DNA of 36,473 nucleotides. Source: a virus (lineage: Duplodnaviria; Heunggongvirae; Uroviricota; Caudoviricetes). Positions 30,615 through 32,811 of the stretch are shown in pieces. How positions within the stretch are numbered: position 1 is the stretch's first letter; each line of letters opens with the position of its first letter. The position numbers and the translations under genes are program-made. The stretch is from the IMG/VR virus record IMGVR_UViG_3300045988_146535; one strand, 5' to 3'. Under the pieces are notes generated by a model, which made no database searches, had not been told where the DNA came from, and saw nothing but the letters and a program-made list of their open reading frames with translations.

Positions 30615-30704
30615 ACAATATGTACCTCCGGTATACATATTACATGATTGAAATGAACCTTCAAGATACTTGTACCTTAACGGTACAAGGGTTTTAATTT
30701 TGTT
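30615..30704. promoter_or_regulatory. Immunity-region operator/promoter (divergent pR / pRM-like)
   Basis: Perfect palindrome CTTGTACC-ttaac-GGTACAAG (30669-30689) and imperfect ATGTACC-tcc-GGTATACAT (30620-30638); candidate -10 TTTAAT at 30693-30698 gives a near-leaderless cI. Confidence 0.5.
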
Positions 30705-31379
30705 ATGAAAACAATCCATGACATCCGGCGGTCTAACGCCAGAAAACTGAGAGATGGTGTTGGCGGGAATTCTTCCTTTGCCACTATGATTGATCGCGAG
30801 CCAACCCAGACCAGCAGGTTTATGGGAGATGGTGCTACTAAAAATATCGGTGACAGCATGGCACGACACATCGAAAAATGTTTCGACCTGCCTGTCGGAT
30901 GGCTCGATCAAGAACACCAGACAACGAACATCACAAAAAAACCTGATGTTTCAATCACTAATAAACAAATCACATTAGTCCCTGTCATATCATGGGTACA
31001 GGCCGGAGCATGGAAAGAAGTTGGATATTCTGAGGTTGATTTGAGCACAGCAGAAACGTATCCCTGCCCTGTCCCCTGTGGGGAAATGACTTATATCTTG
31101 CGGGTGATAGGTGATTCAATGATTGATGAGTACCGCCCGGGAGACATGATTTTTGTCGATCCTGAAGTACCTGCCTGCCACGGTGACGACGTTATTGCAT
31201 TGATGCACGATACAGGTGAAACCACCTTCAAAAGGTTGATAGAAGATGGGACACAGCGTTATCTCAAAGCGTTAAACCCAAACTGGCCTGAGCCTTACAT
31301 TAAGATCAACGGTAATTGCTCTATAATTGGTACAGTGATTTTCTCAGGAAAACCAAGAAGATACAAAATCAAAGCCTAA
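30705..31379 (+). CDS. cI-like repressor (HTH plus LexA/S24-type autocleavage domain)
   Basis: 224 aa; C-terminal VIGDSM...GD...V and K-containing S24 peptidase-like region. Confidence 0.8.
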   Translation: MKTIHDIRRSNARKLRDGVGGNSSFATMIDREPTQTSRFMGDGATKNIGDSMARHIEKCFDLPVGWLDQEHQTTNITKKPDVSITNKQITLVPVISWVQAGAWKEVGYSEVDLSTAETYPCPVPCGEMTYILRVIGDSMIDEYRPGDMIFVDPEVPACHGDDVIALMHDTGETTFKRLIEDGTQRYLKALNPNWPEPYIKINGNCSIIGTVIFSGKPRRYKIKA

Positions 31380-31390
31380 TCAATGTTTAT

Positions 31391-31415
31391 GAACCTGCTT
31401 CGGCAGGTTTTTTTA
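31391..31415 (+). terminator. Intrinsic terminator after cI
   Basis: AACCTGC-ttcg-GCAGGTT followed by TTTTTTT. Confidence 0.6.
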
Positions 31416-31418
31416 TAC

Positions 31419-31452
31419 TTGACAATGTACCTTTGAGATACATAATGTACCC
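31419..31452 (+). promoter_or_regulatory. pL-like early-left promoter with flanking operator repeats
   Basis: TTGACA (31419-31424), 16-bp spacer, CATAAT (31441-31446); 8-bp direct repeat AATGTACC at 31424-31431 and 31444-31451 shares the TGTACC half-site of the cI/cro operators. Confidence 0.5.
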
Positions 31453-31572
31453 AAGAGAAACAACAAACAGGCAGGTCGTCCACGAAGTAGCCCCCTGGAG
31501 CATATGAAGTCCAGGATGATTCGTTGAGTCATGTTGTGCCACTAGGCACTCATGTTAAAGCAGGTGTATGAA

Positions 31573-31848
31573 ATGAAAGTCCAGATTTTAAACAATAACT
31601 GTGAAGTCGTTTGGTCATACGACATAGCCGCCCCTGTAGATCAGAGCGGCGATAGCTGGACCAATGGGAAACATCAGATTATGGCTGGAGTTGTGTTCTC
31701 TTTACGCCGTGCTTTGGAACAGGCTGAAGTATTTCCATCAGACCCTGAATGGAAATGGCCTTTTTCTATTTGTCCAAATTCGGAGAGCACATTTCAGAAA
31801 ATTGGTCAGAAAGTCGCACTCGAAGAGCATCAGCCAACTGTTTCCTGA
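31573..31848 (+). CDS. Hypothetical protein, first gene of the early-left transcript
   Basis: 91 aa from the internal ATG with an AGGTG ribosome-binding site (ORF 31552-31848). Confidence 0.4.
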   Translation: MKVQILNNNCEVVWSYDIAAPVDQSGDSWTNGKHQIMAGVVFSLRRALEQAEVFPSDPEWKWPFSICPNSESTFQKIGQKVALEEHQPTVS

Positions 31849-32011
31849 TTTTTTCAGGTAACTCGTCGGCATCGCAGAAACAACAACGCTCGATCATGTT
31901 GAAAGCCGATTCGTAGAACTGTTTCTGCTGAGTGTCGCTGAGACAGGAAAAGAGCGACGTTACGATGATTTTATTAATTGCATTATCAAGTTCTTTTTCA
32001 TCAAAAGTCAT
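31766..32011 (-). CDS. Hypothetical protein (antisense to the early-left transcript)
   Basis: 81 aa; AGGAAA ribosome-binding site 6 nt upstream of the ATG; Cys pairs (CCFC); overlaps the 3' end of the plus-strand ORF. Confidence 0.35.
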   Translation of the reverse strand: MTFDEKELDNAINKIIVTSLFSCLSDTQQKQFYESAFNMIERCCFCDADELPEKIRKQLADALRVRLSDQFSEMCSPNLDK

Positions 32012-32265
32012 TTGATTTTCCTTTTATGTATACGGGCTTAAAAGGATACCACCGAGCCTGAAGTGGTGAAAAGACAGGCACATAACAGCTAAGTATTTTC
32101 AACCAAAGAGAATCCTTAGCGTTGTGGTGAATGCGGCTCAGCGCACGCGGGTTAAGGTTGAGGCTGACAGTCGACCTTCTGTGGATACCCACCCGCCTGG
32201 TGTGCAACCTTCGCCAGGCACCGGGAGGCACCCGGCACCACAACTTTATGCTGTGTGTAGTCCTG

Positions 32266-32310
32266 GCGGTACCAGCTTGTACCCTTGCTTCCGGCTGGTA
32301 CCGTCCTTTT
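32266..32310 (+). terminator. Candidate intrinsic terminator inside the structured early-left leader
   Basis: CGGTACCAGC (32266-32275) pairs with GCTGGTACCG (32293-32302), followed by tccTTTTT. Confidence 0.35.
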
Positions 32311-32448
32311 TACAAAACAGAGAAGAGCATCACCGGACGACGGGCTCATAACCCAATCCATCCGGGCGGCTGCCACCGCAGGTGTTCTTCTCTGTTTTGT
32401 GGAGAAACTAATCGGCCTTGCAGGGTCGATATGATGAGGAGCAGCAAA

Positions 32449-32811
32449 ATGGCTAGCGAACGCAGTACTGATGTGCAGGCATTTATCGGGGAGCTGGACG
32501 GCGGCGTATTTGAAACCAAAATCGGCGCAGTTCTCAGTGAAGTCGCTTCCGGTGTGATGAACACGAAAACCAAAGGTAAGGTCTCACTCAACCTGGAAAT
32601 CGAACCATTTGATGAGAACCGTGTGAAAATCAAACACAAACTCTCATATGTTCGCCCGACTAACCGCGGGAAAATTTCCGAAGAAGACACCACCGAAACG
32701 CCGATGTATGTCAATCGCGGTGGTCGCCTGACTATTCTGCAGGAAGACCAGGGACAGTTACTGACTCTTGCCGGTGAACCTGACGGAAAACTCCGCGCAG
32801 CAGGTCGTTAA
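32449..32811 (+). CDS. YfdP-like protein
   Basis: 120 aa from MASERS; the upstream part of ORF 32131-32811 looks non-coding; size and order match the K-12 CPS-53 yfdPQRST cluster as I recall it. Confidence 0.5.
   Translation: MASERSTDVQAFIGELDGGVFETKIGAVLSEVASGVMNTKTKGKVSLNLEIEPFDENRVKIKHKLSYVRPTNRGKISEEDTTETPMYVNRGGRLTILQEDQGQLLTLAGEPDGKLRAAGR

Follow-up and report, generated by a model that had tools for sequence, protein, structure and literature searches.

Between the first gene of the early-left operon and the yfdP-like gene, the caudoviricete virus record IMGVR_UViG_3300045988_146535 (36,473 nt in full, hereafter the window) carries a GC-rich stretch at 32012-32448. What does this stretch encode, and on which strand? 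A preliminary description made from the sequence alone had proposed a cis-acting RNA element, possibly of the put antitermination type, or a small structured RNA. Here we show that the stretch is transcribed on the plus strand from a repressor-controlled pL promoter about 600 nt upstream and contains conserved, covarying RNA modules. The RNA represents a version not seen before of a prophage RNA class that is known but lacks a characterised function; it stands in a new setting and is joined to an uncatalogued tRNA-like module. Module 1 (32088-32311) is a divergent STnc100/PasD-related member that comprises a core, a U/G-rich linker and an intrinsic terminator, and module 2 (32312-32400) is a three-way junction with a long stem. 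With about even confidence, we favour reading the whole as the untranslated multi-module pL leader of an SfV-type lambdoid prophage, one that combines an STnc100/PasD-type small RNA with attenuation of the genes from yfdP to xis-int, module 2 serving in processing or stability.

A structured non-coding RNA on the early-left transcript

The stretch had been placed on the early-left transcript in the preliminary description, and the promoter bears this out. The pL promoter and its operators occupy 31419-31462 (+), with TTGACA at 31419-24, a 16-nt spacer and CATAAT at 31441-46, which together give 11 of 12 consensus matches in a promoter scan. A 19-nt repeat, ATGTACC..ATACA, occurs in two copies over this promoter (31424-31442 and 31444-31462, +) and in three copies between cI and cro (30619-30687); because the operator repeat is common to both regions, we assign 31419-31446 as the repressor-controlled pL. 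The structured stretch follows about 600 nt 3' of pL and ends directly 5' of the yfdP-like gene, with the core starting about 670 nt from pL. The promoter scan found no plus-strand promoter in the window immediately 5' of the core or of the leader module that begins at 32048. Phage SfV of Shigella flexneri is 99.5% identical to the window over 32012-32448, and its annotation places the stretch between orf33 and orf32 (yfdP) of a leftward early operon that runs on to xis-int. No N gene is annotated in SfV, in agreement with the earlier remark that an N-like antiterminator gene is not evident.

Composition and folding set the stretch apart, as had been noted. Its GC content is 0.575-0.59 over 32100-32400 as against 0.38-0.47 in the flanks, and the plus strand of 32012-32448 folds at -181.7 kcal/mol, with z = -6.75 relative to 100 dinucleotide shuffles. 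The corresponding value for the minus strand is z = -3.44.

That the stretch encodes a small protein, with the structure incidental, is an explanation we consider extremely improbable. The candidates would be the plus frame 32131-32448 (ymfH-like) and a 74-aa minus-strand open reading frame (ORF) at 32152-32376. The homologue in the E. coli K-12 prophage e14 is called in RefSeq as the coding sequence ymfH, and many phage records, like most annotations of the stretch, read "hypothetical protein". The only ORFs of the stretch are Arg/Cys/Trp/His-rich, however, and across nine homologous leaders (SfV-type, e14, mEp460_4F5, ST64B, 118970_sal3, LLS, F1055, Kp4866-6 and phiES15) no frame is kept open or in register, as anticipated by the initial finding of no plausible coding frame. 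Frames shift among close relatives; the LLS leader has 5-8 stops in each plus frame, and several stops also interrupt F1055, Kp4866-6 and ST64B. The ORFs of the stretch have no match in Pfam, their translated composition is nonsense-like, and substitutions preserve base pairs rather than codons. PHROG 3651 (162 aa, function unknown) does match the minus-strand ORF at E 3e-49, but PHROGs are built from deposited ORF calls, so that a conserved non-coding RNA can yield a spurious "family", and PHROG 3651 is likely a family of ORFs miscalled over such an RNA. We conclude that the pL transcript carries here a non-coding RNA that is strand-specific and under structural constraint, and whose terminator is conserved in position.

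The core is a divergent member of the STnc100/PasD class

An Rfam/Infernal scan, which the preliminary description had suggested as a check, points to the identity of module 1. At gathering thresholds no Rfam family matched anywhere in the window; in a permissive scan, STnc100 (RF02076) aligned over its full model length to 32099-32314 (+) with 41.4 bits (E 2.2e-7), below its gathering threshold of 47, so that the score by itself does not place the RNA in the family. The relatives in phage P1 and e14 scored 33.4 and 29.2 bits. The architecture is shared, with helix P1 starting in GGUGAAU and closing the domain, a P2 hairpin, a CCGGG-AGGCA-CCCGG hairpin (P5) abutting the closing stem, a terminator 40-70 nt downstream and an Enterobacterales prophage setting. 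The small structured RNA considered at the outset is real, while the fact that the first 220 nt form a divergent relative of a known prophage small RNA had been missed.

The core proper spans 124 nt (32121-32244, +). Helix P1 pairs 32121-29 with 32236-44 and is followed by an AAU junction. P2 pairs 32133-37 with 32143-44 and 32146-48, leaving A32145 bulged and exposing a UCAGC loop, whereas P4 (32195-201 with 32213-19) and P5 (32221-25 with 32231-35, loop AGGCA) lie in the 3' half. In addition, AAGGUUG (32154-60) pairs with CAACCUU (32205-11) to form a pseudoknot between the segment 3-5 nt after P2 and the loop of P4. An invariant 21-mer, CACCGGGAGGCACCCGGCACC, covers 32219-39.

To describe the family we built a covariance model of the core, R1, from 35 diverse copies; it aligns to 32118-32247 (+) with 86.8 bits (E 7e-23) and finds a single copy in the window. 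MAFFT alone misplaced P4 by 1-2 columns, and the copies were realigned to the covariance model. A model-fitted alignment leans towards the modelled structure, and controls with slid partners are the fairer comparison: among 106 distinct copies, 90.1% of the cells in the four nested helices are paired versus 42-46% when the partners are slid, with compensatory changes in 21 of the 26 pairs. The pseudoknot is likewise conserved. Complementarity of at least 6 nt is present in 71 of 86 distinct sequences, which realise it with 51 different duplex sequences, and the mean run is 6.66 nt as opposed to 4.72 (sd 0.12) after permuting the loops among the sequences. This pseudoknot is absent from the structure line of Rfam STnc100 and is not mentioned in a 2026 preprint that reports PasD and STnc100 to be structurally homologous and the function of the Pas small RNAs as not elucidated (bioRxiv 10.64898/2026.05.13.724894).

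At least 120 viral contigs contain the exact 21-mer (CACCGGGARGCACCCGGCACC), as do at least 120 genome stretches from Enterobacteriaceae, Erwiniaceae and Yersiniaceae. Exact copies also occur in a small number of assemblies labelled Prolixibacteraceae, Solirubrobacteraceae, Rhodospirillales, Streptomyces, Mucilaginibacter and Vagococcus (loci L253, L261, L278, L285, L292 and L311), which are probably contaminating enterobacterial contigs. Elsewhere the core varies by subtype. The window shares with phage P1 a fully compensated P2, GCGGC/GC-CGC, in place of the CCCCC..GG-GGG of STnc100/PasD, and its P3 is larger; a third subtype (LLS, Kp4866-6) has the P5 stem GGUGG/CCACC and keeps the AGGCA loop. 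We also considered and rejected two short signals within the conserved segments. A sigma-70 pause (-10-like) in the invariant GGUGAAU fails on inspection, as no hexamer fits NANNAT, and a mini-ORF with Shine-Dalgarno sequence and start codon in GGGAGG...AUG fails because the AUG is not conserved among members.

A conserved linker and a terminator of changing sequence complete module 1

The core is followed by a conserved, single-stranded linker, UGCUGUGUGUAGUC (32249-32262, +), and then by the terminator. The linker is nearly identical in SfV, e14, ST64B, F1055, LLS, Kp4866-6 and phiES15, while the neighbouring terminator sequence differs, and it is a candidate seed or processing site. An intra-phage target search found no complementary site for the linker elsewhere in the window beyond chance.

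The intrinsic terminator (32265-32311, +) is predicted from a 12-bp stem, GGCGGUACCAGC (32265-76) with GCUGGUACCGUC (32294-305), a 17-nt loop and five U residues (32307-11). A 10-bp stem at 32266-32275/32293-32302 followed by a T-run had been described here; stem and T-run are real, but the stem has 12 bp and lies shifted by about 2 nt. It escaped our terminator scan only because the loop limit of that scan is 8 nt. Its assignment as a terminator-type hairpin is upheld by the fold and by a GC-rich hairpin with U-run at the same position in the relatives, as expected of a Rho-independent terminator. There the position is kept and the sequence replaced, as in LLS (UGCCCAUC..GGUGGGCA) and phiES15 (GCCCGC..GCGGGC).

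Linker and terminator together (32252-32306, UGGCGGUAcCAG..) align weakly to Rfam DicF (RF00039), with 15.9 bits versus a gathering threshold of 48, too weak for membership. DicF of the Qin prophage resembles the window RNA, as we read it, in being a short RNA that ends in a GGCGGUAUCAG-type terminator and is processed from an immunity-region operon transcript. The similarity in sequence lies mostly in the terminator stem, with no evidence of an ftsZ-binding seed. Phage P1 annotates a separate "dicF-like region" in the operon that holds its core, a link that may reflect shared ancestry of the 3' module or chance.

The core is a portable module found in several transcriptional contexts

Across the family, a terminator-like hairpin with U-run follows within 200 nt in 77 of 91 distinct cores, with a mode at 40-60 nt after helix P1. 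A promoter with at least 9 of 12 matches is present in the scan window 5' of P1 in 18 of the 89 cores that have enough upstream sequence; in most of these 18 the end of the -10 hexamer lies about 8 nt ahead of the scan reference point, and the predicted transcription start thereby falls close to the 5' end of P1. Tandem arrays of 3-6 core units, spaced at about 255 nt (250-260), are present in some phage contigs, and a terminator was detected after each unit examined. Such arrays are seen in the IMG/VR contigs L022 (369-992), L031 (1722-3286) and L064 (4376-5463 and 8376-8519). Besides its terminator, each tandem copy examined shows a -10-like hexamer at a constant spacing; several copies lack the exact 21-mer and were found by the model only.

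The genes 3' of the core vary and include four holin families, a SASA esterase, TerB/TciA, YfdP and others. No terminator follows the core of phage P1 (NC_005856), which is located between upl and tciA and stops 25 nt short of the tciA start. Most other copies examined precede holin or esterase genes or follow stx, in contrast to the window copy, which sits on a repressor-controlled pL transcript between cI and yfdP and lacks its own promoter. We therefore regard the core as a portable module, seen in three arrangements: as the 5' domain of a stand-alone terminated RNA, as a late-operon element, or as part of a leader or 5' untranslated region (UTR), as in phage P1 and the window.

In the Stx2a phage PA2 the core lies 3' of stx2B and not in the pR'-tR' region, which rules out StxS as a core-containing RNA. 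StxS, the short pR'-tR' transcript of Stx phages, is an Hfq-binding small RNA after RNase E processing (PMC7547250). It resembles the window leader in concept, as an early-terminated phage operon leader that doubles as a small RNA, but the two are not homologous: the pR'-tR' region of PA2 lacks the core, and StxS arises from a constitutive late promoter rather than from a repressed pL.

These contexts bear on a put-like action of the core, which we regard as unlikely. As a cis-acting processive antiterminator of the HK022 type, the nascent core would bind RNA polymerase and override the terminator at 32265-32311 and later ones, so that a phage without N would express yfdP...xis-int only from transcripts started at pL. 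In position the two systems agree, since HK022 putL and putR are promoter-proximal structured RNAs that lie 5' of terminators in the early operons of a lambdoid phage without N, and the core stands on the pL transcript just before an intrinsic terminator and the whole left operon of a phage type with no annotated N; the LLS leader even starts right at pL. Tertiary structure is important in both. However, put RNAs are about 70 nt long with two stem-loops (PMC9378689) as opposed to 124 nt, four helices and a pseudoknot, and R1 gave no match at E<=1 in the HK022 PL/PR regions (loci L124 and L135). As a family assignment, the put-like element suggested in the preliminary description thus does not hold, as the core shares neither sequence nor architecture with putL/putR.

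The wider family cuts both ways. Many members have their 5' end at the start site of a strong promoter, and since RNA polymerase is highly conserved, an RNA that binds it would be expected to show the kind of complex fold and invariant 21-mer that the core keeps throughout Enterobacterales. Yet many of the relatives are stand-alone promoter-core-terminator units or self-terminated tandem arrays, in which there is no target for antitermination and which could exist only if transcription does terminate directly 3' of the core. PasD relatives accumulate as discrete small RNAs (PMC8550237), and the core that follows stx2B is located in a late operon already antiterminated by Q, where a second antiterminator would be redundant. 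The co-regulation of e14 xisE-intE with upstream genes would suit a put-like core.

A tRNA-like three-way junction precedes yfdP

Downstream of the terminator, module 2 (32312-32400, +) folds into a three-way junction with a long stem, as indicated by its own covariance model, R2, by covariation and by the predicted fold. A 16-bp inverted repeat had been described at 32311-32326/32384-32399. It is real, with its coordinates displaced by 1 nt (32312-32327/32385-32400), and it forms the outer 16 bp of a longer stem, of about 20 bp (about 22 bp in the fold). The 57-nt GC-rich loop attributed to it is not a simple loop: in the fold, pairing continues inwards to about 22 bp and the enclosed region is branched. 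Of the two arms, arm A (CCGGA..UCCGG) carries GGG-CUCAUAA-CCC, and arm B reads GCGG-CUGCCA-CCGC. R2 aligns to 32310-32403 (+) with 103.3 bits versus 33.3 bits on the reverse strand. Among 17 distinct sequences, 97.7% of the cells are paired compared with 37-52% for slid partners, 9 of the 33 pairs carry compensatory changes, and none of 500 shuffles reaches the observed covariation score. A lack of covariation or conservation of the stems among relatives had been named as what would refute a structured RNA; both elements recur with compensatory changes in many phages.

The resemblance to tRNA is partial. Arm A includes the 14-mer CGGGCUCAUAACCC, which we take to be identical, at 14 of 14 nt, to the anticodon arm of E. 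coli tRNA-fMet. As in that tRNA, a 7-nt CUCAUAA loop is closed by three G-C pairs and belongs to a branched fold, and U-CAU is retained where the anticodon-like loop has diverged (CUCAUAA and CUCAUUA, with UUCAUAU in phage P1). In contrast to tRNA, module 2 has no D arm or T-loop sequence, and the "acceptor" of the window is a stem of about 20 bp without a CCA end. No Rfam family, the tRNA model included, matches module 2, in which no tRNA cloverleaf was recognised; ARAGORN called no tRNA or tmRNA gene in the window and no tRNA gene at module 2 in related loci.

The motif is present in at least 120 viral contigs, either in a leader or as a 71-nt unit beside tRNA genes. In Klebsiella-type phages the 71-nt unit has a 6-bp acceptor-like stem and an NCCA end, and follows genuine tRNA genes directly, 3' of Q. 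An example at L003 2503-2575, with others in L145, L159, L166, L170 and L179, reads GGCCUG-A-[long arm with GGGCUCAUAAUCC]-[hairpin]-CAGGCC-NCCA. Changes in the hairpin arm of this unit are compensatory (GCUG/CAGC versus GUUG/CAAC), and neither ARAGORN nor the Rfam tRNA model calls the unit. In phage P1 and in contig L020, module 2 lies directly upstream of the core, so that the two modules travel as a pair. Phage P1 carries the junction twice (L002 2149-2251 and 2426-2628), each time followed by a core or a core-like start; the core-like start, AUUGUGGUGAAUGC, is at about 2243 and the full core at 2499-2628, on the strand opposite to the annotated plp and upl. We propose the tRNA-like module as a candidate new RNA motif.

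Could these RNAs act as tRNA mimics or decoys in phage-host conflict? Module 2 would then titrate a reader of the initiator-tRNA anticodon arm, for instance a VapC/MvpT-type anticodon nuclease, MetRS or IF3, and the core would be a second, unrelated protein-binding decoy. We think this quite improbable, and the case for it is entirely circumstantial. The 14-nt identity with the tRNA-fMet arm includes the three G-C pairs and the 7-nt loop with CAU, but on its 3' side the arm reads CCCAAUCCA, unlike tRNA. The persistence of U-CAU in divergent copies and the acceptor-like stem and NCCA of the 71-nt unit next to genuine tRNA genes would suit a mimic, as would early synthesis from pL; equally, module 2 could be a decayed tRNA gene reused structurally, and both ARAGORN and the Rfam tRNA model fail to recognise it. 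A further point in favour is that overexpression of ymfH, the annotation of the e14 copy, is listed as a trigger of the retron-Sen2 RcaT toxin (bioRxiv 10.1101/2020.06.22.160242), although this effect may stem from an artificial protein of the expression clone.

Leader layout and the surrounding operon

The nine leaders, from phages of Escherichia, Shigella, Salmonella, Klebsiella and Cronobacter, share one order of modules: a 39-nt 5' module, a variable segment, core, linker, terminator, long hairpin, small hairpin and the Shine-Dalgarno sequence of the first gene. The long hairpin is missing from the phiES15 leader. The 5' module, ACCACCGAGCCUGAAGUGGUGAAAAGACAGGCACAUAAC (32048-32086, +), marks an abrupt onset of homology among otherwise unrelated phages and is found in e14, mEp460_4F5, 118970_sal3, phiES15, LLS and F1055. 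In LLS it follows the predicted pL start (TTGACC-17-TAGATT) by about 14 nt with no gene between, and the core is about 190 nt from pL. On the minus strand, the hairpin ACCACCGAGCCUGAAGUGGU (32048-32067), whose sequence is also the start of this conserved plus-strand module, has the appearance of a terminator (ACCACUUCAGGCUCGGUGGU, then AUCCUUUUAA) a short way 5' of an 81-aa ORF. The 5' half of the plus-strand sequence may resemble the start of lambda nutL boxB (GCCUGAAG).

A further hairpin abuts the core at 32088-32120 (+), where GCUAAGUAUUUUC and GAGAAUCCUUAGC form 12 of 13 pairs in both the minimum free energy and the centroid structure of the region; it belongs to the part aligned to the 5' end of the Rfam STnc100 model. 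In Salmonella F1055 and 118970_sal3 and in Klebsiella Kp4866-6, two T-arm-like hairpins, CUGGUUCGAUUCCAG and GUCCGUUCAAUUCGGAC, lie between the 5' module and the core (L127 2205-2300, L126 2200-2285 and L130 1410-1490); they add more pieces reminiscent of tRNA to this leader, although tRNA detection calls none there. At the 3' end of the leader (32412-32451, +), sequence and fold indicate a small hairpin (32412-17/32424-29), the Shine-Dalgarno sequence GAGGAG (32436-41) and the yfdP-like ATG at 32449. Relatives have a small hairpin of other sequence (GGCGGUGGCAGCCGCC) at the matching place.

The region is also a site of mosaic exchange. More than 50 Stx2, Stx2c, mEp460, cdtI and other phages share only 32264-32448, which holds the terminator, the junction and the yfdP leader, at 95-97% identity, and differ upstream, which reveals in sequence comparison a mosaic joint between core and terminator at 32264; in mEp460 the part upstream of this breakpoint is a very divergent core (22.7 bits with R1). 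One might take such conservation to act at the DNA level, as a recombination joint or protein-binding site for mosaic exchange to which RNA folding is irrelevant, and we hold this to be very unlikely. The breakpoints inside the region are indeed sharp, leader homology begins exactly at 32048, and very different phages share the exact 21-mer. Joints at module borders are equally expected of exchangeable RNA modules, however, and the compensatory changes in the four helices, the pseudoknot and module 2, like the 103 versus 33 bits of module 2 on the two strands, are strand-specific signatures of RNA.

In the layout of the window's plus strand, cI (30705-31379) is followed by its terminator (31391-31410), found in the terminator scan just 5' of pL, and then by pL and orf33 (31552-31848, +; PHROG 3195). 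The product of the yfdP-like gene matches PHROG 204, and yfdQ (DUF2303) and yfdR (HD phosphatase) follow 3' of it on the plus strand. The 81-aa ORF mentioned above (31766-32011, minus strand; PHROG 3311) is convergent with orf33, with an overlap of 83 nt, and abuts the structured stretch; no promoter was found for it. The e14 counterparts of orf33 and of this ORF are ymfJ and ymfI.

A proposed terminated small RNA that may double as an attenuator

We propose that most pL transcripts would end at the terminator 32265-32311 and/or be cut in the linker, giving a discrete small RNA. Its 3' part, formed by linker, terminator hairpin and U-tail, would be an Hfq-type base-pairing module, and the core with its invariant 21-mer probably binds an Enterobacterales-wide factor or protects or positions the RNA for processing. 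The same terminator may double as an attenuator of yfdP-yfdQ-yfdR-xis-int. In transcripts that read through, module 2 would lie in the yfdP 5' UTR and govern processing or stability; its duplex is of a length within the range of RNase III substrates, for which the lambda N leader provides the analogy.

We favour this small RNA and attenuator reading because the architecture of promoter, core, linker and terminator is family-wide, because tandem arrays exist, and because PasD RNAs are discrete and Hfq-dependent. PasD1 and PasD2 of enteropathogenic E. coli (EPEC) have been detected as such RNAs, with many RIL-seq partners (PMC8550237). In addition, the homologous "ymfH" region of e14 belongs to a co-regulated set of e14 induction genes together with ymfJ, xisE and intE (PMC12133099), from which it follows that read-through occurs in this relative.

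Several observations weigh against this proposal. For an SfV-type phage, the 5' and 3' ends of the RNA, its Hfq binding and its targets are ones that we infer; the STnc100 match is below the curated threshold, the U-tail has 5 U only, and the linker has no target in the phage. The window core has no promoter of its own, so that its RNA would be made only on derepression of pL, unlike the lysogen-expressed PasD. The core of phage P1 lacks a terminator and stands directly in front of tciA, which suggests a role for the core independent of the small RNA architecture. Conservation is strongest in the core rather than in a seed-like single strand, which is atypical for base-pairing small RNAs, and the invariance of its 21-mer is unexplained by a small RNA with attenuator. 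The RNase III role of module 2 is purely an analogy.

Conservation of the core beyond any seed, the invariant 21-mer and the phage P1 copy without a terminator together point to a specific partner of the core. In a bolder and rather unlikely model, core and junction would differ from ordinary base-pairing small RNAs: each would be a portable RNA domain that binds a protein, placed by temperate Enterobacterales phages in early as well as late transcripts. With its pseudoknot and 21-mer, the core would dock on a conserved host machine, such as RNA polymerase or a ribonuclease, and alter termination or processing, and the junction would mimic the initiator-tRNA arm as a decoy, for example of a VapC-type nuclease, for anti-defence or translation control. 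If this were true, the trigger of the retron toxin attributed to ymfH would be such an RNA and not a protein.

Implications for ymfH and for the STnc100/PasD class

The copy in prophage e14 of E. coli K-12 is 91% identical to the window (L125 3579-3890, corresponding approximately to window 32046-32438) and is the one annotated as ymfH. It is decayed, its P5 reading CCGGGGGCACCCGA and its anticodon-like loop UUAAUAA. The gene ymfH is probably a spurious ORF over a structured RNA and not a protein gene. At least part of the stretch is present in 2786 of 5426 complete E. coli genomes, and most of it in 1814, usually annotated as a hypothetical protein or, in K-12, as ymfH. Its recognition as an RNA corrects a widespread annotation error and reframes the retron-trigger phenotype of ymfH. 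For the phages themselves, a pL leader that combines the lack of N with a terminator opens to direct test the long-standing question of how SfV-like and e14-like phages transcribe past early terminators. The members of the STnc100/PasD class have so far been treated as simple Hfq small RNAs; their conserved pseudoknotted domain and invariant 21-mer point to a specific binding partner.

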